A DNA stretch of 64,000 nucleotides from an uncultured Alphaproteobacteria bacterium (GTDB taxonomy: Bacteria; Pseudomonadota; Alphaproteobacteria; Sphingomonadales; Sphingomonadaceae), in contig CAVTPG010000001.1 of the NCBI GenBank assembly GCA_963736595.1, positions 91,284 through 155,283 of the forward strand, written 5' to 3'. A program made the position numbers and the translations under genes. The first letter of the stretch is position 1; every line of letters begins with the position of its first letter. The notes below the pieces were generated by a model that searched no databases, was not told the DNA's origin, and saw nothing but the letters and a program-made list of their open reading frames with translations. Of this stretch, positions 9,878 through 27,513 are shown in pieces.

Positions 9878-9878
9878 C

Positions 9879-9894
9879 TGTTCCACGTGGAACG
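9879..9894. promoter_or_regulatory. parS site
   Basis: TGTTCCACGTGGAACG with perfect 14-bp palindromic core, just after the mnmE stop. Confidence 0.9.
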
Positions 9895-9945
9895 TTTCCG
9901 AAATCGCTAGACGCCTTCAGACTAGCGCCGTATTTGGGTACCCAA

Positions 9946-11818: not shown

Positions 11819-12429
11819 TATTGACGACTGAAGCAGAGGCACGCGCTTACGTAGCGGAGCAAACCGACGCCGCGACAATGGAAAAGCTGGAACTATTTGT
11901 AGGCTTGTTAAAAAAAGAGAACCAGCAGCAAAATCTGGTTTCGCGCGGATCGCTCGAACATATTTGGCTCCGACATATAGCCGATTCGGCGCAACTGCTG
12001 CGCTTTGTTCCACGTGGAACGTCTTGGCTTGATCTCGGAAGTGGCGCAGGCTTGCCGGGTGTAATTCTATCGCTGCTGAGGCCACAAGATACTGTTACTC
12101 TTGTAGAATCCAGAACAAAGCGTATCGAATGGCTTGAGCGAATTGTAACAGAATTGACTCTGCCAAATTGTGACATTCGCGGGGATCGATTGGAAAATCT
12201 TGATACGACCAAAGTCGGGGCGATCAGCGCAAGAGCATTCGCGCCTCTGCCTCGACTCATCCAATTGGCGGAACGGTTCTCCACAAAAGACACCATCTGG
12301 GTCTTGCCGAAAGGCCGATCTGCGATAGAAGAGTTAGATAGCTTGCCAAAGCGGTTAAAAAATCTGTTTCACGTGGAACAATCGCTGACAAGCGAAAATG
12401 CGGGAATTTTGGTCGGAACAGGCCTCTAA
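11815..12429 (+). CDS. rsmG: 16S rRNA m7G527 methyltransferase
   Basis: NLVS, RHIADS, DLGSGAGLPG, SARAF; mnmG-rsmG-parA synteny. Confidence 0.96.
   Translation: MILTTEAEARAYVAEQTDAATMEKLELFVGLLKKENQQQNLVSRGSLEHIWLRHIADSAQLLRFVPRGTSWLDLGSGAGLPGVILSLLRPQDTVTLVESRTKRIEWLERIVTELTLPNCDIRGDRLENLDTTKVGAISARAFAPLPRLIQLAERFSTKDTIWVLPKGRSAIEELDSLPKRLKNLFHVEQSLTSENAGILVGTGL
12006..12021. promoter_or_regulatory. parS site inside rsmG
   Basis: TGTTCCACGTGGAACG, identical to 9879-9894. Confidence 0.9.
12365..12380. promoter_or_regulatory. parS site inside rsmG
   Basis: TGTTTCACGTGGAACA, 15/16 match to TGTTTCACGTGAAACA. Confidence 0.9.
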
Positions 12430-12453
12430 GGGCCAGAAATGCGATGATTTAAG

Positions 12454-13236
12454 ATGATCACTATCGCAATCGCGAACCAAAAAGGCGGTGTTGGAAAAAC
12501 GACGACTGCGATCAATATCGCAACCGCCATGGCCGCAACAGGCTGGAAAACCTTACTTATTGACCTTGATCCGCAAGGGAATGCGTCGACCGGGTTGGGC
12601 ATACGCTCGGACGATCGCGCGATTTCCAGTTATGATCTTCTGGTCAATGGAGCAAAAGCTGCTGATTGTGCACGACCCTCGGAAGTTCCGAACCTCGACG
12701 TCATTCCGGCAACCGTCGATCTGAGCGGTGCAGAGGTTGAGCTTGTGACCGTTGAGAACCGCACGTCGCGGCTGACGGAAGCGCTCAACAAGTCCGGCGG
12801 AATGCCGCATGACGTATGCTTCATCGACTGTCCGCCATCGCTTGGGCTTTTGACGCTGAACGCTTTGAGTGCCGCCGATACTCTGCTCGTCCCGCTTCAG
12901 TGCGAATTTTTTGCACTTGAAGGGCTAAGTCAGCTTTTGCAGACGGTCGAGCGCGTTCAGCAGCGCTTTAACGCCGATTTGGGCATAATTGGCATCGTTT
13001 TGACCATGTTCGACCGCCGAAATCGCCTGACTGACCAAGTTGCGGACGATGTGCGCGATTGTCTGGGCAAGCTGGTATTCGATGCCGTTATTCCGCGCAA
13101 TGTGCGTCTGTCGGAAGCGCCCAGCCATGGGCTTCCCGCGCTAATTTACGACCATAGCTGTACGGGAAGCCGCGCATATATGGCGCTGGCCAGCGAACTC
13201 ATCACCCGTCTGCCAAAAACGAGGATAGCCGCATGA
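12454..13236 (+). CDS. parA: chromosome partitioning ATPase ParA
   Basis: NQKGGVGKTTT, DLDPQGNA, DCPPSLG, IPRNVRLSEAPSHG. Confidence 0.97.
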   Translation: MITIAIANQKGGVGKTTTAINIATAMAATGWKTLLIDLDPQGNASTGLGIRSDDRAISSYDLLVNGAKAADCARPSEVPNLDVIPATVDLSGAEVELVTVENRTSRLTEALNKSGGMPHDVCFIDCPPSLGLLTLNALSAADTLLVPLQCEFFALEGLSQLLQTVERVQQRFNADLGIIGIVLTMFDRRNRLTDQVADDVRDCLGKLVFDAVIPRNVRLSEAPSHGLPALIYDHSCTGSRAYMALASELITRLPKTRIAA

Positions 13237-14213
13237 GCAATGCCTACGAACCGATCCGCTTGTCTGGTGCAAAGCCGGGTGCGATCGACCGCAAACGAAA
13301 ATTGGGCAAGGGTTTGGGCGCGCTATTGGGTGAAACCCGACGTGAAGAGCCGCTTGCGCACGGTCGCGCTGATGATAGCGTTACGAACCAGTCGGATATG
13401 CCGACTGACGGCGCATTAATCCATGTCCCGATCGCCGATATAACGCCGCTGCCGGGTCAGCCACGCACGCATTTCGACGAAGATTCGCTGAACGAGCTGG
13501 CCGCCTCGATTGCAGCGCGAGGCGTTATTCAGCCAATCCTCGTTACGCCGCTGACCAAGGGCAAATATCAACTTGTTGCGGGTGAGCGACGTTGGCGCGC
13601 GGCGCAGCGTGCCAAGTTGCACGAAATTCCCGCCGTCGTGCGCTCACTCGATATGCGCGAGATCATGGCTCTGGCGCTGATCGAAAATTTGCAGCGCGAA
13701 GATTTGAACCCGCTGGAAGAAGCGCGCGCTTATAATCGCCTGGCCGATCAAGATGGATTGACCCAGTCTGAAATTGCCAAGCTGGTCGATAAATCACGCA
13801 GCCATGTCGCGAATATTCAGCGCCTGTTGGCTTTACCTGATGATGTGCAGGAGATGGTCGGCAATGGCGCGCTGTCGATGGGCCATGCGCGAGCGTTAAT
13901 CGGCCATGATCGGGCGAGCGAGTTGGCGCGCGATGCTATTGCCGATAATCTTTCGGTTCGCGATGTTGAAAAGCGTGTGCGGCAATCGAAGAAACCCTCG
14001 CGCAATAACGATACAAATCGGCAGAAAACTGGCGAAAATGCGCCGGATAATGCGGATATTGCCGCCGTGCAATCGCATTTGGAAGAGTTTTTGGGACTTT
14101 CGGTCAAGATCAAAACCGATGCCGATCCCAGCAAAGGCTCCGTCGCGATTTCCTACCGCACACTTGATCAGCTTGATCTGATTTGCCAGCGTTTAACCGG
14201 CGGAAATCTCTAA
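13233..14213 (+). CDS. parB: chromosome partitioning protein ParB
   Basis: LGKGLGALL, QPR, AGERRWRA, ENLQREDL, HTH. Confidence 0.97.
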   Translation: MSNAYEPIRLSGAKPGAIDRKRKLGKGLGALLGETRREEPLAHGRADDSVTNQSDMPTDGALIHVPIADITPLPGQPRTHFDEDSLNELAASIAARGVIQPILVTPLTKGKYQLVAGERRWRAAQRAKLHEIPAVVRSLDMREIMALALIENLQREDLNPLEEARAYNRLADQDGLTQSEIAKLVDKSRSHVANIQRLLALPDDVQEMVGNGALSMGHARALIGHDRASELARDAIADNLSVRDVEKRVRQSKKPSRNNDTNRQKTGENAPDNADIAAVQSHLEEFLGLSVKIKTDADPSKGSVAISYRTLDQLDLICQRLTGGNL

Positions 14214-14224
14214 ACCACACGCAG

Positions 14225-14239
14225 TTAACGTGAAATTAG
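14225..14239. promoter_or_regulatory. CtrA-like box upstream of forward operon of the CapB/CapC locus
   Basis: TTAA-CGTGAAA-TTAG (reverse strand CTAA-N7-TTAAC). Confidence 0.5.
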
Positions 14240-14318
14240 GCATATTTTGGCACTCCGCGTCCTAGCCCACTGAAATTCGCCCGTATAAGCGAAGTCAAGG
14301 CCGAGGACTGGTCGCTAC

Positions 14319-16917
14319 GTGCCGAAATTTCTGCCGCAATCTTTGAAACAGCGGGCCGACGAGTTGCGGCCGTTCGTGATTGCGGTGCTGGTGGCGGTCA
14401 TTTTTACGTATCTCAGCGGTACGGCTGTGTTTCGTATCGCCGATGGCTTGATGTTCGATGCTGCATCCACGCGCGCTGCTCCGCAAACCCCGAGAGTGCT
14501 ACTAATCGAACAGGACGCAGCCTTTGAGAGCATGGGCGGTGCGAAATACGATCGCTTGGTCCAAAGCGCAGCGAGAGCCGGGATCACACGCATTGGATTT
14601 GCGCAGGCTCCGCGTGACTGGGTGGGCAGCGACGACAACAAGCCCGCCATACCTGTTGTGGTCGGGATGCCAGCTCAGCGGAAACTAGGGGGCGATGTCT
14701 GGTCGCTCGATCCTGAACTGCGCACTCGCCTACCCAAAGCGGTGCAGCCGGCAGCAAGTGTGATCGCAGCATCCGATTACGGCATCTATCGGCGTCAAAT
14801 TACGGCTTTATCGACTGAGGATCGATTAATACCGACATTCGAAGCCGCGTTGTCTGGACGCGCCGTCGAAAGTCGATCATTTTTATGTCCAGATGTCCCG
14901 CGATCAAAGCATCCCGCGAGCGAACGCCTCACAGATGATTGCTGGAGATTTCAGACAAGGAAGTTTTGCAGGGATGGTGGCAGTCGTCGAACCCTCCAAG
15001 CAGCTACGGGAGCGCCGCTTTACCACGCCATTGACACCGCTAAGCCAAACCACCAGCGCCAGTGTATTTCGTGCCAATATGGTTCAGAACTTCCTTGATG
15101 GTAGGGCTGCACATAGTCTCGCGGCGTGGCAAAACTTCCTGCTTGTCATGGTTAGCGCCATGATCGCGGTGCTGGCTTTGCGATCGGTCGATGCCAAGCG
15201 GGTTGTGCTGTTCGTCATAGGCATCGGTGCGATATTGGTCATGGGGGCCGGATGGCTCGCTCTGACCATTATCAGCGCAGTTTTGCCCGTCTCGGCAATG
15301 CTGGGCGCGCTTTTGGTATCCGCCGCCACAATGGTTCTGTTGCGGGAGCATTCGCAGGATGACCGCCTGAAATCCGTCCTGGAGCGGGCAATCGGCTTCT
15401 CTTATTCGCGGTCGATACTAAACGAGCAAGCGCACCTGTCGCATTTCGTAACTGCTGCCGCTCGCAATTTGGCAATTGATAACAGCGCCGTGTTTCAATT
15501 TCGCGGTGATGGAGAGCCGCTTTACAAAGAAAACTTCGGATTTACGCCGCATGAAATGCCGGATGAAAAAACCCTTCGATTACTTTCCAAGCGCACAAAA
15601 CGAACCGGAACGGTGATCGATGTCAGCAATAAGATCTCGTCAAGAACCGAAACGAGCCACTATATAACGCGGCTTGATAATGCCGATGTGCCAACGTTCT
15701 GGTTCTTTTCAGTCAACGAAAGCGGAGATCCGGCGGCGCTTAAGCGCATCACCGATCAGGCGCAGGATATCGCCAAAACTTACGCGCGGTTTTATCGCTG
15801 GCGCGCTGATTTGTCCGCCAGCGACAGCCATGCGCGCCGGTTTCAGCCGATTGATCGGCAGATCGCCAGCGCCGCGTCGCTGATTTCCACGCAATCGGAG
15901 CAAATGCGCGAGGGGATCGAACACCTTAATACTGCGGTTGCAATTTATCACGTGGGCGGCTTTCCGGTTCATGCCAATGCGGCGATGCAAAATCTGTATG
16001 GCGATGCGGAATTGAACCTTGCGCGGGCGTCGCTGAGCGAGGCCTTGCTTACGCTGACCACATTGGAAGAAGAAGCCGTGCAGCTCCTGATCCATGACTT
16101 AATCGTTTCCGGCAGAGAAGTGCGCGTACCTGCCCGAGAATTTACTGCCAAACAGCGCATTTTGCGCATCGCAACACATCGCGATGAGACGCCTGACAAG
16201 GGTTGGCTGAACCTCATTATACTGGAAGCGCTCGACATTTCAGAGTTAAATAAGCTGGCCAATTTGCGCCATGCGGTCGGAAATTTCGTCGATAAGCAGC
16301 TTCGCAATGATTTGGAGGCGCTGGAATTCGGGGCCGATGTCGCCTTGTCGCACGCGGCAGAGATGCCTGGCCTAACCAAAGTGTTGAACCGGATACGCGA
16401 CGTTTCGCAGCGGGCGACCGGACGCCTGGATCAGGTTGCAAGTCTGCTTGACGATGCCAGCGGCACGAATCTTGAAGTTTGCTATCCAATTGACGCGCGT
16501 AAGGTGGTCGAGGATGCGTTTGAGCGCGTGCGGAATAAGGCAGAGGATTTCGAAGTCGATGTGGCGCTCGACCTGCCGGGAATCAGCGGCTTTACGATGG
16601 CCGAACCGCAGGTTTTGCTCGAAACGATAGAAGCCATGATGAACGTCGTTATTGCGGACACGCCACATGGTGGGTCGATGCGAGTATCATTGCATGAAGA
16701 GCGCGACAGTTCGCGGCTCGAAGTAACGGGCGGCATCGGCATTCCGTTCGAGCGGCTGATTGCGGCTTTCGATGCCGGGCAAAGTGAAGTTCCGGACGAG
16801 TTTCACGCCATTTCCATCGGTATCGCCAACGCGATCACATGGAAGGGGCAAGTCAGTTATTGGAGTTCCGTCGGCAAGGGCTATCGGTTCGTTATAAAAT
16901 TGCGGCGGGTTGGATGA
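14319..16917 (+). CDS. CHASE2-like membrane sensor with degenerate histidine-kinase core, +1 frameshift at T5 run 14880-14884
   Basis: N-terminal TM, periplasmic region (DGLMFD..PRVLLIEQD), three further TMs, PAS-like segment (VHANAAM), H-box-like VDKQLRNDL, C-terminal SSVGKGYRFVIKL; ~865 aa after removing one T. Confidence 0.7.
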
Positions 16918-17300
16918 TGGCGGCGCGAATACTGATTGTGGACGACGACGATCTGCTGTGCGAGATGTTGCAGGCGATGCTGGAAATGCACGGCTATGCC
17001 GTTGCAATTGCTGCCGATGGCGAGGCAGGCCTGAAATTGCTGGCTGAACAAGCGATCGATCTGGTCATTCTGGATCTCGTCATGCCCCGCATGGATGGAT
17101 TGCGTTTTTTGCGGGAGCTGCCCGACAGGATTGCCAATCCGCCGCCGATATTGATGGCTTCAGCTTCGGCAACCCCACAAATGCAGGCGCTTCACACCAA
17201 TTCGGGAGTGGCCGGAATCATCCGCAAGCCGGTGAAGTCGCAGATTTTGCTGGAAACCATCGAAACGGTGCTAGCCAAGCGGAATTCAATCGGCGCATAA
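16914..17300 (+). CDS. single-domain (CheY-like) response regulator
   Basis: ILIVDDD, LDLVMPRMDG, SA, KP; ATGA overlap with upstream stop. Confidence 0.93.
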   Translation: MMAARILIVDDDDLLCEMLQAMLEMHGYAVAIAADGEAGLKLLAEQAIDLVILDLVMPRMDGLRFLRELPDRIANPPPILMASASATPQMQALHTNSGVAGIIRKPVKSQILLETIETVLAKRNSIGA

Positions 17301-17313
17301 AGCACGCGCCACT

Positions 17314-19893
17314 ATGACTATTCCATTATTTCCCGAAGGCGGCCTTGCCAGCTCGGTCATCACGACCGTGTGGGTTGGCGTGTTCGTGCTGTGCTTCTTC
17401 AATTTGCGTTTCGGATGGGTTTTATCAGGGCTGGTCGTGCCGGGATACCTCGTGCCGCTGCTGATCATAAAGCCGCTGGCAGCGGGAATTATCGTCGTCG
17501 AAGCGGTGCTGACTTTCCTGCTCGTCTGGGTGTTTTCGGAAAAGATCGGCAAGGGCCGCTGGCCCGCTTTATTCGGGCGCGACCGGTTTATGGGGCTGAT
17601 TTTGGCTAGCATCGCGGTGCGGTTGACGCTGGACGGGTTCGCCTTGCCGGTGCTGGCTGACTGGCTGGCCGAAAACTGGAATCAGGAGCTTGACTGGCGC
17701 AGCGATTTGCAAAGTTTTGGACTGGTGATTGTGTCGCTGCTGGCCAACCAGTTTTGGAAGCCGGGGCTTACGCGCGGATTGTTCGCGATGATTGTCACGG
17801 TCGGGCTGACACTGTTAATCGTGCGGTACGGATTGATGGAATTCACCAATTTCAGGATCAGCGGCGTGTCCTACTTGTATGAGGGGCTGGCCAGTTCGAT
17901 CCTCGCCAGCCCCAAAGCCTATATGATTTTGGTGCTGACTGCGATGTATGCCAGTCATATGAATGTTAAATACGGGTGGGATTTTTCGGGCATCCTGATC
18001 CCGGCTTTGATCGCGCTGCAATGGTATCAGCCGACCAAAATCCTGACATCTTTTATCGAAGCCGGCATCATCTATTTGATTGCGATTGCCGTCCTGAAAC
18101 TGCCGATTTTCGCCAATAGGACGATGGAGGGAGGCCGCAAACTGCTGCTCTTTTTCAACATCAGTTTTGCTTACAAGCTGATCCTAGGGCATCTGCTGGT
18201 TCTGTTTGCGGTCGAGGTGAAAACAACGGACCTGTATGGGTTCGGATATTTGCTGGCGACGCTGATTGCAATCAAGGCGCATGATAAGCAGATATTCCCG
18301 CGCTTGATGCGAACGACATTGCAGGTTTCACTGGTGGGAGCAGTCGCGGGAAACCTTTTTGGTTTGTTTTTATCAACCGTTCTGCCAGTTGCAGGGGCCA
18401 ATCTGGCAAATGCGCGCATCACGGAAACCCCTTCCAGCGTGAGTGCCGAAAAGCAGTTGGCAGCTTCTGCGATCGGCAATGCCTATCTACAGCGGTGGCA
18501 GGGTGGAGCCGCGCCTATCAGCCGTCAGTCAGCCGATACGTTAACCGATCTGGTGCGATTACTGGAAGCTGGGTTGCCGCCAGTCGAGGCTAATGCGCGG
18601 GCCAGCGCAAGCGGATGGCAAGTCGTGACGTTACCGGGAAATGTCATTGCGATCATGCGTTCGGATGGGTTGGGCGGCGACTTACTGCTGCATTATCCAT
18701 CGAGCCGTGGAGCGATCGCAATCAACGCACCACGTCCGGCAAGCGCGCCTGGAACCGCGATGGCGGCCTTTGCTTTGCGCGTAAATCAGGATGCCCGTTG
18801 GCTGGTTTTAAGCGCGCCCATTCAACCCGAAGCGATCGGTCAACCCTCGGTACTGGCAGCATTCCGTTCAGGCAGCAGCTTGCCGGAATTGGATATCATA
18901 GCCGCGACGAACAGTAACTTTGCGATAGCGCAGCCCATAGTCGAGGTTGCTGGGCGGTCTGCAGCGGACATCGATATTCAAGCGCTGCGTGCGGCGATCC
19001 CGTCGCTTCAAGTGCGTTTCTCGCCTAGCGACACGACCGAAAATACGCGCGGCGATGGCGCTGTTATTCGCTTGCCCAAAGCCGATATTGCGCGATTGGC
19101 ATCCAGTCTGTCGCCCACTAGTCCGCAAAGCGCAGGCCGCTGTACCGTCAGTGCCCTCGCACCGGGCGCACAGCCGATTAAGGACATGGCCGATCTGGCA
19201 TTCCTTCGCGGAGAAGTGGCCGAGCCGGTCTTGTCCGCCATATCAGGCGAGCCGATTCCGGAGACATCGCGGATTGCGGCGCAATGGTTGGGGCTTGGCC
19301 TGAATGACTGTATCGATGATGATGGAGCGCCGCTGTGGCATCTGGCCTCGGATTTGCGGAGCGCCGGGCATTATTTCTTCGCACCCGGCCTTGCAACCGG
19401 GCGGATCGTCCACGGCTTTGCCGACGCGCAGACCGAAGGCGATGATGCCTCGCAATTCGACCGGAATGCCGTCCGCACAGCACGCGATTTCCGGCGAAAC
19501 TGGGGTGCCGGGATCGCAATGATCGCGCCAACCCAACAGGATTACGGCGGCTCGCAAATGACGGCATTCGGCGTCATCAATCAAAGCGCCATTCGCGCGC
19601 TTGGCAATCGCCCCGGTGCAATCGTCCAGCTTCGGACCCCGCCAAGCGCCGCCGATCTGAAGATTGCGCAAGGCTCTGCTTATGTCCTGTCCGGGCGGAT
19701 CCAGCGGAGCGATACTCTTGCCGACGAGGTCGAAGCGGCTTTGCGGAGCGGGGGCTACGATGTGTCGCGAATTGCGCGGCAGCAAGGGACCGCCGGGATC
19801 GAAGCGCCGCCGGAAAATTCGCTGCGCTATGTGTCGCAATCACGCAACAAACGCTATGCCGTTGTCCTGATCCCCGCAGAGCAAGCGCCATGA
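17314..19893 (+). CDS. PgsC/CapC-family polytopic membrane protein (two CapC repeats) with large C-terminal extracytoplasmic domain
   Basis: SGLVVPGYL..LFGRDRF..SFGLVIVSLLANQFWKPGL resembles B. subtilis PgsC (AGLVVPGYL..LYGRRKF..GIGIIVPGLIANTIQKQGL); second repeat SGILIPALI..EGGRKL..GFGYLLATLIA. Confidence 0.85.
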   Translation: MTIPLFPEGGLASSVITTVWVGVFVLCFFNLRFGWVLSGLVVPGYLVPLLIIKPLAAGIIVVEAVLTFLLVWVFSEKIGKGRWPALFGRDRFMGLILASIAVRLTLDGFALPVLADWLAENWNQELDWRSDLQSFGLVIVSLLANQFWKPGLTRGLFAMIVTVGLTLLIVRYGLMEFTNFRISGVSYLYEGLASSILASPKAYMILVLTAMYASHMNVKYGWDFSGILIPALIALQWYQPTKILTSFIEAGIIYLIAIAVLKLPIFANRTMEGGRKLLLFFNISFAYKLILGHLLVLFAVEVKTTDLYGFGYLLATLIAIKAHDKQIFPRLMRTTLQVSLVGAVAGNLFGLFLSTVLPVAGANLANARITETPSSVSAEKQLAASAIGNAYLQRWQGGAAPISRQSADTLTDLVRLLEAGLPPVEANARASASGWQVVTLPGNVIAIMRSDGLGGDLLLHYPSSRGAIAINAPRPASAPGTAMAAFALRVNQDARWLVLSAPIQPEAIGQPSVLAAFRSGSSLPELDIIAATNSNFAIAQPIVEVAGRSAADIDIQALRAAIPSLQVRFSPSDTTENTRGDGAVIRLPKADIARLASSLSPTSPQSAGRCTVSALAPGAQPIKDMADLAFLRGEVAEPVLSAISGEPIPETSRIAAQWLGLGLNDCIDDDGAPLWHLASDLRSAGHYFFAPGLATGRIVHGFADAQTEGDDASQFDRNAVRTARDFRRNWGAGIAMIAPTQQDYGGSQMTAFGVINQSAIRALGNRPGAIVQLRTPPSAADLKIAQGSAYVLSGRIQRSDTLADEVEAALRSGGYDVSRIARQQGTAGIEAPPENSLRYVSQSRNKRYAVVLIPAEQAP

Positions 19894-20693
19894 GCCTGAC
19901 CGCAATCCTGCGCCTGCTCGCCGTGGGGGCAATCATTCTGGCTGTGGGTGTTGGAAGCTGGATGACGTCGCCACGCATCGCGGAACTGCTGGGCGCTTCG
20001 GAAGAAGGCGCACGCGACCGGGTGGCTTTAAGCGACCGCACCCTGGTATATCGGTTGAAAGATGCCCGCACCACGCGCTTCGTTTTCTCGCAGCCCAGCA
20101 CCATTGCACGGGTTTTATCGACGCCCGCGATTGCCGAGGCCGTCTGGGATGACGGCACACGCTGGAGCTATGGCTACCGCGTCACCTTGCGCGACAGCGG
20201 CGATAATATGGTCGCGTCCCACGATATTTATTCCAGCGCCGCCAATCCGGCAAACCTAGAAGAACCGCTGAATATCGTTCGGTTCACACGCGGCGGAACG
20301 GGCGGCATCGGCACGCAGGATCAGGCCGTAATTGCCTCGGACACACCATTTGTTGCGATGGATATTGGCCCATTGCCCTCAGATAAAGGCGTCGACGCAG
20401 TGTATGTCCGCGCTTACGAACGTCGCCCATTTCTAGGCGGTGCGGCGGCGCTGGCGGCCTATCGCAGACGCAGCGATGACGAACGCGAAGTGCTGACCCG
20501 CGCAAATGCCTTCCCCGAGCGCTTTATCAGCAATGCGGAACGACAAAACAGCGTCATCAACCAGTGGCGACCGCTTGGCCCGTCCGGTATATCGGGCCGC
20601 GACTATGACGTGCTGGTCATGTATAAAGGCACGCTCGACAGCGAGGCGGAAGACGGCGACGATGGAGATGGCGACGATGGAGAGGGTGGCTGA
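19890..20693 (+). CDS. hypothetical membrane-anchored/exported protein with acidic tail
   Basis: N-terminal hydrophobic helix; start/stop overlaps on both sides; tail DSEAEDGDDGDGDDGEGG. Confidence 0.8.
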   Translation: MSLTAILRLLAVGAIILAVGVGSWMTSPRIAELLGASEEGARDRVALSDRTLVYRLKDARTTRFVFSQPSTIARVLSTPAIAEAVWDDGTRWSYGYRVTLRDSGDNMVASHDIYSSAANPANLEEPLNIVRFTRGGTGGIGTQDQAVIASDTPFVAMDIGPLPSDKGVDAVYVRAYERRPFLGGAAALAAYRRRSDDEREVLTRANAFPERFISNAERQNSVINQWRPLGPSGISGRDYDVLVMYKGTLDSEAEDGDDGDGDDGEGG

Positions 20694-21553
20694 TGGCGCG
20701 GCGCAAATGGCTGCTCCTTTTGGGGATCGTGATTGTGGCGTTTAGTGCAGCCATGCTGGCAGGCCTGTTCCCGCCGCTGCGTTCCAGCAACGGGTTCGAG
20801 CGACCGGGCGCAGTGGACTTGTCGCGCGCAGAGGCGATGTTTGCCGCTGGGCTTGGCGCTCCCAAATCAAGCGAATGGCGTGAGGCGGCGAGCGATCTTG
20901 GCTGGCAAGCACGCGATGCAGAAGGATTTGCGCAACTCGTCGAACCATCTGGGAATTGCCAGGGGCGCGGCGTGTACCTCATCGGTTTGTCGCCTGATGC
21001 TGCGCCAACCGCCATGACTGCCCCCCATCGCGGGGCCGACAAGCATACTGGAACACTGGCGGCCATGTTCGCAGAGGAAGGCAAGTTGGCTGCTGCAGCG
21101 TGGAATTCCGCGCCTCGCCGAAAATCCGCAGAGTGCGATGCTTTTGGCGATCTGGCAAAGGCGGAGGAGCATTTTTTCACGGCCTTTGCCCTAAGTTTTG
21201 CGCAAGCCTACCCGCAAGGCCGCGTCGTGCAATTGCACGGTTTCGATCGCGACAATCGCCAAAGTCTTGCGGGAAGCGAGGCCGACATCATTATCAGTGA
21301 CGGGACCGATCAGCCGGGCGACCGCTTGCTGGCCTTGTCGGAATGCCTGACGATCTCGCTGCAGGCGTGGAACGTGCGCGTTTATCCGCTCGATGCGCCG
21401 GAACTGGGCGCGCTTAAAAATGCACAAGGCGCCGCGTTGCGAGAGCAGGGTTTTGAGGGATTTACCCATATTGAAATGAGTTTGAACTTGCGTCTCGCCT
21501 TACGCAAAGACACGGGATTACGCGCACAATTCCTCAACTGTTTCAAAGCATGA
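20693..21553 (+). CDS. membrane-anchored putative zinc hydrolase, PghP (poly-gamma-glutamate hydrolase)/N-formylglutamate amidohydrolase-like
   Basis: Ordered motifs TAPHRGAD, VQLHGF, THIEMS..LR; N-terminal TM. Confidence 0.6.
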   Translation: MARRKWLLLLGIVIVAFSAAMLAGLFPPLRSSNGFERPGAVDLSRAEAMFAAGLGAPKSSEWREAASDLGWQARDAEGFAQLVEPSGNCQGRGVYLIGLSPDAAPTAMTAPHRGADKHTGTLAAMFAEEGKLAAAAWNSAPRRKSAECDAFGDLAKAEEHFFTAFALSFAQAYPQGRVVQLHGFDRDNRQSLAGSEADIIISDGTDQPGDRLLALSECLTISLQAWNVRVYPLDAPELGALKNAQGAALREQGFEGFTHIEMSLNLRLALRKDTGLRAQFLNCFKA

Positions 21554-24500
21554 GCAATCAGGCCATGCTGCTGGCCACGCCGTGCCGTATCAATGCGGCG
21601 CTGGAAGTCGGCTTGCCTGAAATGCTGTGCGGCACTTACGCCGATATTCACGAATCGATTGCGCATTTTGCCGCGCAGACGGGCGATCACGACGCGGTCG
21701 GAAATTTCACCGATCATGCCAAGACGCTGATTGCTTTCGTTAAGCACCGCTTAGGTCATATCGGTGATCTGCATGATGCCGCCGCGCTGTTCAATGCGCG
21801 CTTTGCCAATGCTCTGGACCGCGCAGCAGAGCGGGCCGCAATTATGGATTTCGCCGAACGGCTGGGCGCTGACGCTGCGCAACTTGAGCGCGACAGGAAG
21901 GCATTCGACAGGTTCTTCGACGGCGATGCCGTGAGCGAACGATATCGGCGGCGCGTCGGAGAAGCCGAGCGCGAATTGGCTCACACAGTGGAGCGGCTGG
22001 GCCTGGTCGCCGGTGAGGCGTTGCGTGTCGGTGAAATGGCCGGTGATGACGAGTTGTTGAGCAAAGCAATTGCCGGCGTGCTGACGGATGCGCGAAGTTA
22101 TCGCGGGGATGCGCGCGTCAAACAAGCGGGGTTCCGCGCGTTGCACCATATTGGCACAGGCGCGCTCGAACCGCTAACCGGCTTTTGGATCGACATTGCC
22201 ATTCGCGACACTCGGCGGCTGGCGCTGGACACGAGCGAAGACACCTGGGCGCAATGCGATGCGTTTGCCACCTTGCTCACGATGGCGCCCGGCTCGCTCG
22301 AACCCGTGTTGGAGCGGCGATTAGGCAAGTCCAGTCTGGAAGGCCCTCCCTTGCGGCAGGAGAACCGGATGTTCGTGCGGCGCTATCTGGCCGATCTGCT
22401 GTGCGAGGCCGTGCCGGATCACCCGAAGCTGTCGAAATATCTCAGCCGGATCGCCAATGATCGCAACGGCGCGGTTCGGCAGGCGCTGGCCAAGGCGCTG
22501 GTCAAATTGCCGCGTGACGAGGCAAAACCGCTCGTGTCGCGATTGCGAATCGATCAGGATCCGCAAGTCCGCGCGATGCTGTTCGCGCAGCCGCAAGCGA
22601 TGGCGCAAACGATCGGCGGCGCCATGTATCGCTCGCATATCATCCGGGTTCTGTCGCGCGATGAGGACACTCATGTTTTGCGGATGGCGATGGATGCGGC
22701 GGTTAAGCTGGTCGCGTGGCAAGGTGGGCATGAGCCAGCCCAACAGGCCGAAAGTGTTACGCAATTGCGACAGGCGCTTAGTGTGTTGCGGGCGCGCAGC
22801 ACGGCGGCCAATAGGCGGCGCTGGGCAGGCGAAGCGATGGAGCGGATCTGGCTTTATTCAGACGCCGATGCGCTGGATATGGCGGAATATATCCGTTTTC
22901 AAATGGCAGCCACTGCCGAGGGGCAGCGTCGCAAATTGCCCGAGCTAGCCGATGTGGCCAAATCTGATCCGCATTTCATCGGACGCATTATGGCCGTTCT
23001 GGCGCAGGATGGGTTTGGGCTGGAGTTAATTGCCGGATCGGTGCCGCGAATGCAAAAAGGGGAGCGATTTGCACGTCGGTTGTGGCGCATTCTGTTCGAG
23101 TTGCGCGTCTCCTCGACCGACAAACGACAGGCCTTCCTGCACACGATCGGGCGCAGCTTGCCCGGAACGATCTCTGCCCCGGCCGCGCATATGGCCGAAC
23201 TGGCTCCGACCAAGGTTCCGGGTGAGCCGCTGCATTTTGCCGATGAGGGCGGGTGGCGCAATTATCTGCCGCTGGTCGATCATGCGCTGGCAGCGATCGA
23301 TCGAGGCAAGACAACGCGCATTTTCACCAGTGAAGGCGTGACGTCGCTGACCGCTCCATCAGGCGTGCTCGCGCGCATTACCGCCTATTGGCAGGTCAGT
23401 CGCAACTTCGCTCGGCTTGCGGCATTGCGCAATCAGGGCGGCAGTTCAGACTATGTCGACGCGTTGCGCCAATATGGCCTGTCGGTCGAATTCCAGGCGC
23501 ACGACGCATATGAAGCGCCGCTTTTAACACCGCAAAAGCAAACTGCGCTTAAGTTCGATCAGCCACAAACCGCCAGCGATCCCGAAGTGGTCAGATTATT
23601 CGATCTTGGCGGCGTGCTAATCGCCGTGCCGGTGCTGCTAAAAAGCGCAGCAGCATACTTTGCCACGGTTTTTGCCAACACGCTGGGCCAGCTTGCTTTG
23701 TTTCTGCTGCTTGCAGGAGGATGGTTCGTCGGACGCCACCTGTATCTTGGCTACAAGGCGCGCCGCTATCGCAATGCAATCCCTCTGTCGCTGGGTGGCT
23801 GGGGAACGCGCGGTAAATCCGGGACCGAGCGGCTGAAGGCGGGGTTGATCAATGCTTTGGGCCACCCGCTGGTGTCGAAAACGACAGGTTGCGAAGCGAT
23901 GTTCCTGCGCGGCGAGCCATTTGGCGGCCTCACCGAAATGTTTCTGTTTCGCCCGTATGACAAGGCGACGATCTGGGAGCAGTTTAATCTGATCCGCATT
24001 TCCGTCGGGCTAAAGGCGCGCGTATTTTTGTGGGAATGCATGGGCCTTAACCCGTCCTATGTGCGGGTGCTGCAACGCGACTGGATGCGCGATAATATCG
24101 GTACCATTACAAATACTTACCCTGACCATGAAGACGTGCAGGGTCCGGCAGGGCGCAACATCCCTGAAGTAATGCGCGAGTTCATTCCGGAAAACTCCGT
24201 GCTGCTGACAACCGAAGAAGAGATGCTGCCGATCCTGCGCGAAGGCGCGGCGCAGGCCAATACGCGAATGCGCGCGATCGATTGGCGCGAGGCGGGTCTG
24301 GTGCATGAAAATCTACTCGCGCGGTTTCCCTATGCCGAGCATCCCTATAATATCGCGCTGGTGGCGGCGATGGGGGATGAGCTGGGTCTGGGCGAGGATT
24401 TCTGCATCAGAGAAATGTCCGATCGCGTGGTGGCAGATTTGGGCGTGCTAAAAATCTATCCGCAAGCCAATGTCGATGGGCGCATTCTGGAATTCGTGAT

Positions 24501-25782
24501 GGGGATGAGCGCGAATGAGCGGTTCGGCGCAATGGGAAATTGGGACCGGATGGGCTTTGCCGACCATGATCTTGGCGAAGATCCGGCAATTTACGTCAGC
24601 ACCGTGGTCAATAATCGCGCCGACCGGGTGCCGCGATCGCAGGTCTTTGCGCGCCTGTTGGTGAATGACATATCAGCGGACAAGCATTTCCTGATCGGAT
24701 CGAATATCGATGGACTGATCGGATTTATCGAGGAAGAATGGGAGGCTTATGCAGCGCGCCTGAGCCTGGAAAGCGATACAGACGACACACCTGCCGAAAT
24801 TTTTGAGCGCCTGGCGCGCCAGCAACGTGTGCCGCTGAACCAAGAGCAAATAGAGCGGCGATTGATGGCGATGCTGACAGCAATTGCCGATAATGAGCGG
24901 GCAAATACGCTGGTCCGCGCTGCGCGTGAAGGCCAACTCGCTGCATCTTTTACCGATGATGAGCGCGCACTGGGTGAGCAGATCTCCGAAGAACACGCGG
25001 AAATGGTTAAATCGCTAGAGGAGTATCAAGCGCTATCTAGCGTAATATCGAAAGGTGGCGCGGCGGAACATTTGGCGCGCGTTCGTGCATTCCTGCACGC
25101 TGCTTTCATGCGCAAACTGGTTCCGGTTCGCGATGTTCACATGTCGGGTGAGAATATCGTGCGGCTGATCGCGCATCATTCACCGCCGGGCCTGACAAAT
25201 CGCATTATGGGGATGCAGAATATCAAAGGGACGGGCCTGGATTTTGTCTATCGCTGGCAAGCGTGGGAGCAAGTGCATCGAGCGTGCGCGCAGGCGCGTG
25301 ATGCGGATCCAATGGTTGCGGAAAAGGGCTTGTCTGCGCTGGCCGGCTTTCAGGAATATGGCATTTTAAGCGGAAGCGAGGTTCGCCGCACAATCGCCGA
25401 ATTGCAAATCCGCGACGAACTGCCCGTATCGTTCACGCCCGCGCAGCTTGATGCGATTATTGCGCGCGTCGATACGCAGCTTGGCGAACTGGACGCGGCG
25501 GCGCGAATGGACGGCGAGGAGGCAGGCAGCGCAAGCATCCCATCACGGTTTGCTGGCAGGGTGGTCGAAATCGTGGAAGCCTTTGTCGATGCGGGCGATG
25601 CCGTGCGCCGCCGCCGGCAAGCCGATGCGATTTATAAAGCCATGATTGCCGAGCAGATCAGCAGCCAGCGCGCCGCGCTGGAATTGAAAAAACTGACGAT
25701 GCGGCAAAAGGGTGGCTGGCTGGCCGAATCAATCACCCAAGGGCAAGGCCGATTTGCGAGCCTGTTCCGGCGCTCTGCCTAA
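21550..25782 (+). CDS. HEAT-repeat + PgsB/CapB poly-gamma-glutamate synthase-like amide ligase fusion (1410 aa)
   Basis: GTRGKS..RL, KTTG, EQ, ECMGLNP.Y, TN..PDH.DVQGP, MSANE, NNRADRV.RS, GMQNIKG match PgsB motifs in order; HEAT-like repeats DRNGAVRQALAKAL, DQDPQVRAML. Confidence 0.88.
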   Translation: MSNQAMLLATPCRINAALEVGLPEMLCGTYADIHESIAHFAAQTGDHDAVGNFTDHAKTLIAFVKHRLGHIGDLHDAAALFNARFANALDRAAERAAIMDFAERLGADAAQLERDRKAFDRFFDGDAVSERYRRRVGEAERELAHTVERLGLVAGEALRVGEMAGDDELLSKAIAGVLTDARSYRGDARVKQAGFRALHHIGTGALEPLTGFWIDIAIRDTRRLALDTSEDTWAQCDAFATLLTMAPGSLEPVLERRLGKSSLEGPPLRQENRMFVRRYLADLLCEAVPDHPKLSKYLSRIANDRNGAVRQALAKALVKLPRDEAKPLVSRLRIDQDPQVRAMLFAQPQAMAQTIGGAMYRSHIIRVLSRDEDTHVLRMAMDAAVKLVAWQGGHEPAQQAESVTQLRQALSVLRARSTAANRRRWAGEAMERIWLYSDADALDMAEYIRFQMAATAEGQRRKLPELADVAKSDPHFIGRIMAVLAQDGFGLELIAGSVPRMQKGERFARRLWRILFELRVSSTDKRQAFLHTIGRSLPGTISAPAAHMAELAPTKVPGEPLHFADEGGWRNYLPLVDHALAAIDRGKTTRIFTSEGVTSLTAPSGVLARITAYWQVSRNFARLAALRNQGGSSDYVDALRQYGLSVEFQAHDAYEAPLLTPQKQTALKFDQPQTASDPEVVRLFDLGGVLIAVPVLLKSAAAYFATVFANTLGQLALFLLLAGGWFVGRHLYLGYKARRYRNAIPLSLGGWGTRGKSGTERLKAGLINALGHPLVSKTTGCEAMFLRGEPFGGLTEMFLFRPYDKATIWEQFNLIRISVGLKARVFLWECMGLNPSYVRVLQRDWMRDNIGTITNTYPDHEDVQGPAGRNIPEVMREFIPENSVLLTTEEEMLPILREGAAQANTRMRAIDWREAGLVHENLLARFPYAEHPYNIALVAAMGDELGLGEDFCIREMSDRVVADLGVLKIYPQANVDGRILEFVMGMSANERFGAMGNWDRMGFADHDLGEDPAIYVSTVVNNRADRVPRSQVFARLLVNDISADKHFLIGSNIDGLIGFIEEEWEAYAARLSLESDTDDTPAEIFERLARQQRVPLNQEQIERRLMAMLTAIADNERANTLVRAAREGQLAASFTDDERALGEQISEEHAEMVKSLEEYQALSSVISKGGAAEHLARVRAFLHAAFMRKLVPVRDVHMSGENIVRLIAHHSPPGLTNRIMGMQNIKGTGLDFVYRWQAWEQVHRACAQARDADPMVAEKGLSALAGFQEYGILSGSEVRRTIAELQIRDELPVSFTPAQLDAIIARVDTQLGELDAAARMDGEEAGSASIPSRFAGRVVEIVEAFVDAGDAVRRRRQADAIYKAMIAEQISSQRAALELKKLTMRQKGGWLAESITQGQGRFASLFRRSA

Positions 25783-26687
25783 AACCGGTAGCCGACATCC
25801 AGCGAAAAGCGCGGAGCATCCTCGCGAAAGCGCACATCATTCGAATCGCGAAATTCGTACTCAGCGCGCGCTTGCGCATAAAAGCCACGCGCCTTGCCAT
25901 ACGACAGGCCAATCTCGGGATTGACGACGGTATCGCGCCGCAATGCCTCAGCGCCATCCTGTCGCGCAATCCGCGCGTCATATCGCCATTGGCTATATTC
26001 CAGCGCGGGCCGCAAACGCAGTCGCTTGGTCAGAGGCAGGCTATAGTCGGCCCGGACGACTTCCCGGCTGTAGCTAAGCCGCTCCCGATCGCTGTCGATC
26101 GCATCATGGCGAGCAGTGAGCCGGGCCCAGTGGTACGATGCGATGCGGCGATTATATTGCGCTTCGATGCGCGGCCCTTCGCCACTGGACCGGACGGCAT
26201 CATCGTAATCGCGAAAACGATATTCGCCGCGTAGCCGCACGCGATTGTCGGCATCTTCCCAAAGCATCTCGCCGCGAACCGAACGCTGATCGACACTACG
26301 CGATTCTAAAGTAACCAGATTGGACACTCGCCTTGAGCGCAGAGCAATTCGCACATTCTCGCTCACCTGTTGACGCACTTCGACCGACAGACCTAAACTC
26401 TTGCGCGTTTTGCGCTCATCATCGCTGAAGTCGAACACGGTTGGATCAACGGAGATGCGGATTTGTGTCGCATTTTCGGTAAAAGTTACGGAGGCGGCGG
26501 CGCTGATCCCGACGCCTGAGCTTTCCACGTCATCGCCTTGGAAAATCGCGCGCTCAGCCTCAACAGCCGATAATGTCGTGCGCAGATCAAAATCAATGTC
26601 GTCCAGAGCAATCGCTGGTCCGGCAAGCCCAAACAAAGCGGCGCAAGCCACTAGCATCCGTAAAATGTGACGCGCCGCGAATATCAT
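25779..26687 (-). CDS. outer-membrane beta-barrel protein
   Basis: Signal peptide (..GPAIA), alternating amphipathic strands, C-terminal SLDVGYRF. Confidence 0.8.
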   Translation of the reverse strand: MIFAARHILRMLVACAALFGLAGPAIALDDIDFDLRTTLSAVEAERAIFQGDDVESSGVGISAAASVTFTENATQIRISVDPTVFDFSDDERKTRKSLGLSVEVRQQVSENVRIALRSRRVSNLVTLESRSVDQRSVRGEMLWEDADNRVRLRGEYRFRDYDDAVRSSGEGPRIEAQYNRRIASYHWARLTARHDAIDSDRERLSYSREVVRADYSLPLTKRLRLRPALEYSQWRYDARIARQDGAEALRRDTVVNPEIGLSYGKARGFYAQARAEYEFRDSNDVRFREDAPRFSLDVGYRF

Positions 26688-27445
26688 CGCGACAGCGCCT
26701 CGCGAAACTTACACAAAATATGAACCAGATCGGTTGGCTTGCACGTGTTGAGGCGCGCCTCAAGCGCTAAGGCCAGTTCGCTTAATGCTTCTTCGCCGAA
26801 GGAGCCTGCCGTGCCGGCCAGCTTGTGGATCATATTGCGCAGCTCGCTCACAGTTTCGTGCGTCACGATCTCGCCAGCACAAATAGCCTCGATCCGTTCG
26901 AACAGGTCAGTTTTGCGAAGCTGATACCGCGCAATGAGCGCCGGGCTGGGGCCCTCGCTATCTGTTTGCTGCGTGGCAATAATCTGCGGCGCCCAGGCCT
27001 GTACAATGTCCGTAAGATCAGCGATCGACACGGGCTTTGAGAGATAGGCTTGCATTCCCGCGGCTAGGTAAGGCTGCACTTCATGCGGCGCGGTTGCGGC
27101 GGTGACGGCAACAACGGGCAATTCGGTTTCGGTGATTCCTGTAGCGCGCAATCGCTTCACGACCTCGATTCCGTCGATAATGGGCATCATCGCGTCCAGC
27201 AGCAAAAGGGAGTAAGGCCGGCCAGCCTCTTTTGCTGCGCAAATCATGGTGATCGCTTCCAACCCGTCACAAACCCAAGCGATTGGCAAACCGATGCGCT
27301 TTCCCAACATCACAATCAGCTCACCCACGATGGGATTGTCTTCGGCCAGCAGGATCTGCGCCCGGTCATCTGGCGCACCGTCAGCAGATGTAACGCGCGC
27401 ATCTCCGATCGTTCGATGCGGTCCGGGGAAGTTGGCCATATGCAT
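26684..27445 (-). CDS. receiver + Hpt domain phosphorelay protein
   Basis: LLAEDN, LDAMMPIIDG, TA, YLSKP; Hpt motif IHKLAGTAGSFG. Confidence 0.9.
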   Translation of the reverse strand: MHMANFPGPHRTIGDARVTSADGAPDDRAQILLAEDNPIVGELIVMLGKRIGLPIAWVCDGLEAITMICAAKEAGRPYSLLLLDAMMPIIDGIEVVKRLRATGITETELPVVAVTAATAPHEVQPYLAAGMQAYLSKPVSIADLTDIVQAWAPQIIATQQTDSEGPSPALIARYQLRKTDLFERIEAICAGEIVTHETVSELRNMIHKLAGTAGSFGEEALSELALALEARLNTCKPTDLVHILCKFREALSR

Positions 27446-27468
27446 CCGGCGCGTATCGCAGGATATGG

Positions 27469-27483
27469 TTAAGACTGTACTAA
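27469..27483. promoter_or_regulatory. CtrA-like box upstream of REC-Hpt/beta-barrel operon
   Basis: TTAA-GACTGTA-CTAA (reverse strand TTAG-N7-TTAAC). Confidence 0.5.
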
Positions 27484-27513
27484 ACGCGGCGCGTTAGCGG
27501 TGGCTGCAGCCTG

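Follow-up and report, generated by a model that had tools for sequence, protein, structure and literature searches.

Organisation of the eight-gene cluster

The window analysed here, a stretch of 64,000 nucleotides (nt) of contig CAVTPG010000001.1 from an uncultured alphaproteobacterium of the Sphingomonadales, carries at positions 14319-27445 a cluster of eight genes built around an enlarged PgsB/CapB-type amide ligase and a double CapC/PgsC membrane protein. Open reading frame (ORF) listing and family scans revealed six forward genes meeting two convergent reverse genes, with adjacent genes overlapping by 1-4 nt or separated by a 13-nt gap, and with the ligase gene (+) and the gene of an outer-membrane barrel candidate (-) overlapping tail to tail at 25779-25782 (Table 1). 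All eight ORFs lie where the initial annotation had placed them. Two of its details were revised: the first gene is a single ORF in relatives and is split here by a +1 frameshift, and the receiver is likelier to start at 16914, with an ATGA overlap with the sensor stop, than at 16839. Judged from homology and gene content, the cluster probably serves the regulated synthesis and the envelope handling or export of a polyglutamate-like polyamide, as an enlarged PgsB/PgsC-based envelope system of double-membraned bacteria; the earlier reading of the locus as a poly-gamma-glutamate (PGA)-type polymer system is supported as far as computation allows. Below, G000 denotes the genome of the window (a draft assembly of 2.29 Mb in 11 contigs, 89% complete), other G numbers denote genomes of relatives and L numbers related loci.

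Table 1. Features of the cluster, with positions in the window
Feature	Position	Strand	Evidence or remark
CHASE2-type sensor with degenerate histidine-kinase core	14319-16917	+	One gene, frameshifted ORFs 14319-15098 and 14893-16917
+1 insertion site in the sensor gene	14866-14869	+	Comparison with contigs of related populations
Single-domain CheY-like receiver (REC)	16914-17300	+	PF00072; ATG overlaps sensor stop
859-aa double-CapC gene, whole	17314-19893	+	ORF
Tandem double CapC/PgsC membrane domain	17314-18400	+	Residues ~1-360 of the 859-aa protein; PF14102
CapC tail domain 1, degenerate partial 286-aa-type fold	18499-18918	+	Residues ~396-535; hhalign
CapC tail domain 2, degenerate full 286-aa-type fold	19162-19890	+	Residues 617-859; hhalign
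267-aa membrane-anchored beta-sandwich protein	19890-20693	+	Transmembrane prediction, AlphaFold2 model
286-aa protein with N-formylglutamate-amidohydrolase/PghP-like fold	20693-21553	+	AlphaFold2 model, invariant residues
1410-aa HEAT/PgsB ligase gene, whole	21550-25782	+	ORF
Ligase N-terminal helical HEAT-like region, ~680 aa	21550-23583	+	Sub-cut-off HEAT_2; homologue families
Ligase hydrophobic hairpin, two transmembrane segments	23584-23718	+	Residues ~679-723; hydropathy
PgsB/CapB-type ATP-dependent amide-ligase domain	23761-24771	+	Residues 738-1074; TIGR04012
Ligase ~135-aa insertion, MQNIKGTGLDFVYRW block (~1220-1236) and C-terminal helical extension	24772-25782	+	Alignment
302-aa outer-membrane beta-barrel candidate, Arg-rich	25779-26687	-	Signal-like N-terminus, weak Pfam
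253-aa REC-Hpt phosphotransfer protein, translationally coupled to barrel gene	26684-27445	-	PF00072, PF01627

The ligase and the double-CapC protein

The homology to CapB proposed in the initial annotation was borne out by a match of ligase residues 738-1074 to the PgsB profile TIGR04012 (E 9.9e-54, 182.5 bits, profile positions 22-343 of 380) and by the motifs that the ligase has in common with canonical PgsB. Residues 738-1051 aligned with residues 30-331 of a canonical 402-aa PgsB from the same order at about 31% (30-32%) identity over 322 columns, and both proteins carry the GTRGK(S/T) P-loop, KTTG, ITN..DH.DV.GP and N.R.DR..RS motifs, which are invariant in the 14 family members of the ligase alignment (A1). 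The protein is not of the ~390-aa single-anchor form: at 1410 amino acids (aa), it places the ligase domain behind a 680-aa helical region and a transmembrane (TM) hairpin. The label HEAT given to that region derives from a HEAT_2 match at residues 276-342 that, at 21.4 bits, is under the cut-off, and no HEAT match of Pfam in the window protein exceeds it; PF13646/PF02985 are precomputed on many homologues, and many columns of the N-terminal region are invariant in A1. Hydropathy peaks at residues 679-723 form a hairpin of two TM segments, which would hold both the N-terminal helical region and the ligase domain in the cytoplasm, where ATP is available.

Beyond the ligase core lie the family-specific insertion of ~135 aa and a conserved glycine-rich block at residues 1212-1239. 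This block includes MQNIKGTGLDFVYRW, and we take it to be the counterpart of the C-terminal glycine-rich motif of canonical PgsB. The C-terminus of the ligase is conserved in A1, and the PgsB profile match ends at position 343 of 380. A search of PDB sequences with ligase region 720-1260 found nothing. In-frame stops were flagged in four ligase homologues, three of them being natural stop codons and one (L089, ~13025) an internal TGA; in the metagenome-assembled genome (MAG) holding L051, the ligase gene is frameshifted at ~11576. The L051 frameshift and the L089 internal TGA, both in MAG copies of the gene, may be assembly errors or decay.

The CapC assignment likewise held, with the domain present twice. 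The 859-aa protein matched CapC PF14102 in two stretches (E 9.6e-38, 129.7 bits; gathering score 27 bits), and the homologues of Methylovulum, Halomonas, Competibacter, Vreelandella and Roseomonas also scored over the gathering score. Its first ~360 residues are a tandem duplication with about 8-9 hydrophobic segments and form the best-conserved part of the CapC alignment (A3). The tail of ~500 residues is divergent; in it, profile comparison recognised the fold of the 286-aa protein (encoded further downstream) twice, each time in degenerate form. Copy 1 was found by hhalign of the 286-aa family alignment (A2) against A4 (probability 97.3%, E 2.7e-11), and its counterpart of the APH motif of the 286-aa family reads APR/VPxP. 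Copy 2 was found by hhalign of A2 against A3 (probability 96.1%, E 3.4e-9, 243 columns), with QLHGF of the 286-aa family changed to VQLRT. The His-containing motifs of the family are thus replaced in both copies.

Conservation of the cluster and its long form

A further 33 Sphingomonadales loci keep the gene set in this order, which makes 34 in total. The carriers of this compact form are Erythrobacteraceae and a few Sphingorhabdaceae and Sphingomonadaceae MAGs; the closest homologues belong to Erythrobacteraceae, and the ligase of Parapontixanthobacter (Altererythrobacter) aurantiacus, of the same genus as G000, is 69-70% identical. Among the 28 Sphingomonadales loci with enough flank, the barrel gene was present in 27 and the REC-Hpt gene in 26, so that the eight genes co-occur elsewhere, as the initial annotation had expected, even where the barrel pair has moved upstream. 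The barrel was linked to the ligase gene in three arrangements: besides that of the window, the barrel/REC-Hpt pair stands upstream instead of downstream in L014, L018 and L027, and the barrel alone stands upstream on the forward strand in L042 and L043, where REC-Hpt was not found. That this linkage survives rearrangement argues for the barrel being part of the system. That the eight genes are unrelated neighbours is hardly credible, given the 1-4 nt gene overlaps, the order kept in 34 loci, the linkage of the core in the Alpha- and Gammaproteobacteria loci that were studied closely, and the domain common to the 286-aa protein and the CapC tail.

Relatives of the ligase occur in at least 564 species-representative genomes, spanning Alpha-, Gamma- and Betaproteobacteria, Magnetococcales, Mariprofundaceae, Desulfobacterium and a Planctomycetia MAG. 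Homologues of the ligase and of the 286-aa hydrolase-like protein recur in Gamma- and Betaproteobacteria, Magnetococcales, Desulfobacterium and the Planctomycetia MAG, and a Mariprofundaceae contig showed the ligase only; the core genes were conserved in those Gamma- and Alphaproteobacteria loci that were inspected closely. Only six genes are family-wide, namely those of the sensor, REC, CapC, the 267-aa module, the hydrolase-like protein and the ligase. Among the loci sampled, only the compact ones of Sphingomonadales had the barrel and REC-Hpt pair, and tblastn did not find it in long-form loci.

The long form is exemplified by Methylovulum miyakonense, Halomonas daqiaonensis, Candidatus Competibacter and Roseomonas. 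The order in Methylovulum is CHASE2 sensor (897 aa), REC (128 aa), double CapC (1082 aa), a ~820-aa protein, the 286-aa homologue, a large secreted protein and the ligase; Halomonas, Competibacter and Roseomonas have this layout with small differences. The compact and long forms agree in the CHASE2 pseudo-kinase, REC, double CapC with degenerate tail, 286-aa homologue and HEAT-PgsB ligase, in the same order, and the long-form ligases are 39-46% identical to that of the window. The long form differs in the ~820-aa protein, in the large secreted protein and in a CapC with an extra C-terminal extension of ~135 aa. The secreted protein, of ~1300-1970 aa and mostly ~1750 aa, is encoded between the hydrolase-like and ligase genes; in Methylococcaceae it is split into parts of 1119 and 736 aa, the latter a lipoprotein with a lipobox. 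Atlas searches with the 1119- and 736-aa proteins returned scores <0.85, those for the 736-aa lipoprotein including weak leads to BcsC_C, PgaA_barrel and NfrA_C.

In the ligase tree, the compact loci come together in a single branch (31 rows), which has a Shimodaira-Hasegawa-like approximate likelihood ratio (SH-aLRT) support of 99. One alphaproteobacterial MAG locus that is compact by gene spacing, L058, falls among the long-form rows; its architecture, at L058 3764-9845, is intermediate: it encodes a CapC of 1067 aa and a 535-aa anchored protein, and its hydrolase-like gene stands directly before the ligase gene. L058 may be a second, independent compaction. The locus of the window is therefore a compact form, found here only in Sphingomonadales, of a widespread uncharacterised family. 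The initial annotation knew of no characterised locus with this architecture. A literature search outside subscription journals on giant PgsB, double CapC or CHASE2-linked PGA genes indeed found no paper describing either form, but the architecture is not confined to this locus: hundreds of species carry members of the family whose compact form it is.

The 286-aa and 267-aa proteins

The 286-aa protein has an N-terminal hydrophobic segment (anchor or signal peptide) and gave a confident AlphaFold2 model (predicted local distance difference test, pLDDT, 91.2). Structural comparison of the model returned 2odf (Z 13.7), 2q7s (Z 13.0), 5onj (12.3), 21dc (12.0) and 3a9l (11.9) as top matches, with 175-184 aligned residues, followed by M14 carboxypeptidases at Z about 10. 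The entry 2q7s is an N-formylglutamate amidohydrolase (FGase), 2odf (the Atu2144 structure) presumably belongs to the same family, and 5onj, 21dc and 3a9l are the PGA hydrolases YndL/PghP. In 24 homologues, H112, D116, R142, D153, H182, H259 and E261 are invariant, and two Cys are nearly so. The modelled protein is thus of the PghP/FGase-type zinc-amidohydrolase fold with its candidate metal/catalytic set intact. It resembles PghP, YndL and FGase in fold and in the H...D/E...H...E pattern of invariant residues, and differs from PghP and FGase in its N-terminal anchor, a helical lead-in of ~60 residues and a first motif of the form H-x3-D. For the label zinc hydrolase, fold matches and invariant candidate residues speak in favour, while no Pfam match reached the cut-off; the PF05908 profile, named in the initial annotation as a check, gave no match to this protein or in five carrier genomes, and the likeness to PghP/YndL is one of fold, at Z about 12. 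Because the top structural matches act on glutamate amides, a glutamyl product is indirectly supported.

The 267-aa protein has one N-terminal TM segment and was modelled by AlphaFold2 as a beta-sandwich (pLDDT 85.6). Its structural matches were generic jelly-roll or carbohydrate-binding-module-like folds at Z 5-7.8, with none above Z 7.8; a likeness to BcsB (Z 5.4-5.7) was not significant. No Pfam or NCBIfam match was found, an Atlas search returned unnamed clusters only, and a kinship with the 286-aa family was rejected (hhalign probability 1%). The protein corresponds to the first ~255 residues of the long-form ~820-aa protein (hhalign of A5 against A9, 100%, E 4e-41). That it binds the polymer is a guess. 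A periplasmic place is suggested by the anchors or signal peptides on the 267-aa protein, the 286-aa protein and the barrel, together with the two nearly invariant Cys of the 286-aa family.

CapA/PgsA (PF09587), CapD/GGT and CapE had no match among the eight cluster proteins, in agreement with the initial annotation, which had recognised none of them, and no CapA (PF09587) was found in the whole genomes of G000 (89% complete) or Methylovulum. PGA_cap PF09587 matches in ~700-aa frames lie 1-2 Mb from the cluster in three relatives (G001:C1:1120709-1121467, G003:C1:2088886-2089644 and G019:C1:2092642-2093400); as PF09587 also matches in E. coli and Caulobacter, these distant frames are probably unrelated. 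Other Mur-ligase-family enzymes add one or a few residues to non-polymeric acceptors, and the ligase might do the same or make another polyamide, with CapC and the periplasmic proteins serving that product. Such a product would accord with the lack of CapA/PgsA, with the lack of a glutamate racemase among the eight cluster genes, with equivalog scores of both core proteins under the cut-offs, and with the insertion and the 680 extra N-terminal residues of the ligase. We nevertheless hold it to be distinctly improbable: the canonical PgsB motifs are complete in the ligase, glutamate amides are the substrates of all the nearest structural neighbours of the 286-aa protein, and, to our knowledge, the CapC domain is known only as the partner of PgsB in PGA synthesis.

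The outer-membrane barrel candidate

The 302-aa barrel candidate has a signal-peptide-like N-terminus, about 275 mature residues and a C-terminal ...VGYRF. Of the marks of a beta-barrel, as called in the initial annotation, a signal-like start and a terminal aromatic residue are present, but the Pfam matches stay under the cut-offs (PF10082, 21.2 against a cut-off of 23.7; PF13505, 17.6 against 28.7). Only 20 clusters of homologues were found, some homologues carrying PF10082, PF13505 or a DUF481 name, and a search of PDB sequences with the barrel profile found nothing. A derivation of the small barrel from the long-form secreted protein or the ~820-aa protein found no support (hhalign probabilities 0.4% and 2.4%).

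The size of the barrel, its occurrence only in Sphingomonadales compact loci, its lack of detectable homology to the long-form secreted protein, and periplasmic parts that are membrane-anchored, not soluble, together raise the alternative that a gamma-glutamyl or other amide polymer stays in the envelope, either periplasmic or attached to peptidoglycan, lipid or protein. The 286-aa protein would then be a transferase or processing enzyme, as CapD of B. anthracis is, and the barrel a porin or an unrelated partner and no exit pore. We consider this unlikely, because the barrel linkage kept through three rearrangements argues for a functional tie, and because the C-terminal part of the long-form secreted protein, with its weak language-model leads to BcsC/PgaA-type barrels, fits export.

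Signalling proteins

The sensor relatives are single ORFs of 803-924 aa. The Halomonas homologue has a match to the periplasmic domain CHASE2 (PF05226) that exceeds the cut-off, and L018 a weak one; HATPase_c was weak and under the cut-off in the window, exceeding it only in Methylovulum. The position of the H-box His is occupied by K/R/L/V/A/F/A/Q/L in 11 homologues, and neither the N-box Asn nor the G1 Asp of the ATP lid is conserved. By these residues the sensor is a pseudo-kinase, as had been claimed, with the H-box His absent in every lineage examined. The second gene fits its earlier description as CheY-like: the receiver matched PF00072 (E 7.7e-26, 90.9 bits), and its phospho-acceptor pocket is intact, D11/D12, D54 and K105 being invariant or nearly so across 11 homologues including Methylovulum (alignment A6). 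It has no output domain, and in Competibacter it is fused to the sensor.

Both domains of the REC-Hpt (receiver-histidine phosphotransfer) protein scored over the cut-off, confirming that call (PF00072, E 3.4e-18, 66.3 bits; Hpt PF01627, 27.6 bits against 24.6), and its Hpt motif reads HKLAGTAGSFG. In two Qipengyuania loci, L030 (5755-9711, -) and L032 (14924-18841, -), REC-Hpt is the C-terminus of a hybrid kinase of 1305-1318 aa with the architecture MASE1-PAS(x4)-HisKA-HATPase-REC-Hpt. In L029 and L031, the REC-Hpt protein is of intermediate length (575 and 751 aa). This series suggests stepwise truncation from a hybrid kinase towards the 253-aa REC-Hpt. A Paracoccaceae long-form locus has a GAF-PAS hybrid kinase with Hpt downstream. 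G000 itself encodes, at G000:C5:96977-99306, a MASE1...HisKA-HATPase-REC-Hpt kinase, matched in three adjacent pieces and with 45% identity over the kinase-REC-Hpt part; it is a candidate phosphodonor for the relay of the cluster. The simplest reading of these domains is a multistep relay from hybrid kinase to REC-Hpt to receiver. A complex prediction for the receiver and ligase residues 1-680, run without controls, scored 0.00, which speaks neither for nor against their binding.

Genomic site and the sensor frameshift

Upstream of the cluster, window positions 9874-14213 hold gidA (mnmG), gidB (rsmG), parA and parB, so that the cluster adjoins the partition genes, a neighbourhood that we take to be origin-proximal; downstream lie genes of a GAF protein and a GSDH-like protein. 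In the cluster-less genera represented by G005, G009 and G012, parB stands only ~1.5 kb from the downstream GSDH-like gene. Because the site is empty in these genomes, the 13-kb cluster is a presence/absence cassette at a fixed site.

Searching the window by tblastn with the sensor protein of L012 gave matches in two frames, with the change between 14882 and 14893; a T5 run lies nearby at 14879-14883. Contigs of runs X2, X3 and X4 (two studies, 90-99% identical) have one base fewer at 14866-14869, so that a single sensor frame would be restored. In the best holder, run X1, contigs end at 14870 and resume at 14925, with a depth of 3-6; the run with the largest share of the sensor region is a metagenome from sediment. 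The frameshift may be a real lesion or an assembly error. The system might accordingly be switched off or decaying in G000, with its sensor gene broken by the extra base, which three related populations do not have, and with the cluster lost or missing in most related genera, some of which have empty parB-GAF sites. We regard such decay as unlikely: the seven other genes are intact and conserved, the assembly is an incomplete draft, and, as the contigs of the best run break at the frameshift site at low depth, an assembly error is at least as likely as a real sensor lesion.

Comparison with known systems

In Bacillus, CapB/PgsB has ~400 aa and CapC/PgsC ~150 aa. The cluster resembles the Bacillus PgsBCA(E) and B. 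anthracis CapBCADE systems in its PgsB-type ligase domain with shared motifs, its CapC domain, its membrane-anchored ligase and a hydrolase resembling PGA depolymerases encoded alongside. It differs in a ligase of 1410 instead of about 400 aa, with HEAT-like N-terminus, TM hairpin, insertion and C-terminal extension; in a CapC that is tandem-duplicated and fused to about 500 residues predicted to be periplasmic; in having C before B; and in carrying, in addition, a sensor, two receivers, an Hpt domain and the candidate outer-membrane barrel. The oversize of the two core proteins (1410 and 859 aa) and the reversed gene order had been described correctly.

The cluster also resembles the loci of non-Bacillus bacteria that pair PgsB with TIGR04332, in being a PGA-type ligase locus of a Gram-negative genome. 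One of these, at L011 9858-12825 in G037, of the same order, encodes the canonical 402-aa PgsB (TIGR04012, 435.9 bits, well over the cut-off) followed by a "poly-gamma-glutamate system protein" (TIGR04332); among the ORFs scanned there, none was identified as a giant ligase, a double CapC, a hydrolase-like protein, a sensor or a barrel. It adjoins an RND (resistance-nodulation-division) efflux pump gene and is a second, different PGA-type locus in Sphingomonadales. With the alginate, cellulose (Bcs) and poly-N-acetylglucosamine (Pga) systems, the likeness is only an analogy of layout, comprising an inner-membrane synthase, a putative periplasmic polymer-modifying hydrolase, a candidate outer-membrane barrel and a proposed post-translational signalling input. 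The eight proteins differ from those systems in having no glycosyltransferase or cyclic di-GMP receptor domain and in amide ligation in place of glycosyl transfer; homology to exopolysaccharide secretion systems was not detected except for the weak language-model leads for the long-form lipoprotein.

Proposed function and implications

From the homologies, folds, conserved residues, linkage and distribution described above, we infer a model of substrate, polymer, topology, export route and direction of phosphotransfer. A cytoplasmic PgsB-type domain, held at the inner membrane by the TM hairpin beside the HEAT-like module, would spend ATP on lengthening a chain by amino acids, most likely by glutamate joined through gamma-amide bonds, and the double-CapC membrane domain would carry the chain across the inner membrane. 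In the periplasm, the CapC tail would bind the chain through its two amidohydrolase-like domains, both catalytically dead, and the chain would there also meet the anchored 267-aa protein and the 286-aa protein; the latter, with its His/Asp/His/Glu set intact, would trim, release or transfer it. The small Arg-rich barrel would replace the ~1750-aa secreted protein as the outer-membrane component in the Sphingomonadales lineage. Output would be set post-translationally by the output-less receiver paired with the degenerate-kinase CHASE2 sensor: a hybrid kinase encoded elsewhere may phosphorylate REC-Hpt and, through it, the receiver, and receiver and pseudo-kinase would then act on the synthase.

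Several observations weigh against this polyglutamate-like system. The ligase score of 182.5 bits is below the TIGR04012 equivalog cut-off of 222.7 (a whole-protein score), and the ligase is therefore a divergent PgsB relative and not an orthologue by the NCBI standard; CapC scored 58.5 bits against TIGR04011 (the PgsC equivalog), under the cut-off of 96.45, and is by the same standard not a PgsC orthologue. The 286-aa protein had no match to PF05908 at E 0.01, and its family profile no sequence match among PDB chains. The 267-aa protein has no confident fold match, and the barrel is only sub-threshold in Pfam, with no detectable homology to the long-form secreted protein. The cluster is patchy, occurring in 5 of 40 genera among relatives, and is therefore dispensable; its sensor gene is frameshifted in the G000 assembly, and no holder of RNA data covering the sensor region was listed. 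The substrate is not readable from sequence, and the polymer is a prediction.

It is possible, and we propose it tentatively, that the family represents a new class of envelope-spanning, synthase-dependent polyamide secretion machine, switched by a phosphorylated receiver and a dead-kinase CHASE2 sensor acting on a HEAT-bearing ligase, with the compact form as its minimal parts list. If this is true, the Sphingomonadales form has lost the ~1750-aa secreted protein, together with most of the ~820-aa protein, and has taken up a small barrel. PGA synthesis is understood almost only from Bacillus, in which the polymer crosses a single membrane; the present family, whose accessory proteins match no described family, would reveal how an amino-acid polymer is made, processed and perhaps exported in bacteria that have an outer membrane. 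The compact form, with a core of about 11.5 kb in small, culturable and genetically tractable marine alphaproteobacteria, would be the most practical entry point for genetics, heterologous expression and structural work on PgsB-PgsC; culturable carriers include Parapontixanthobacter aurantiacus MCCC 1A09962, Qipengyuania atrilutea and Erythrobacter litoralis SNB-035. The carriers among the at least 564 species include methanotrophs, giant sulfur bacteria, Halomonas, nitrifiers and marine Erythrobacteraceae. An anionic polymer so far overlooked could therefore play a part, across many habitats, in biofilms, in the binding of metals, in tolerance of desiccation or salt, and in resistance to phages.

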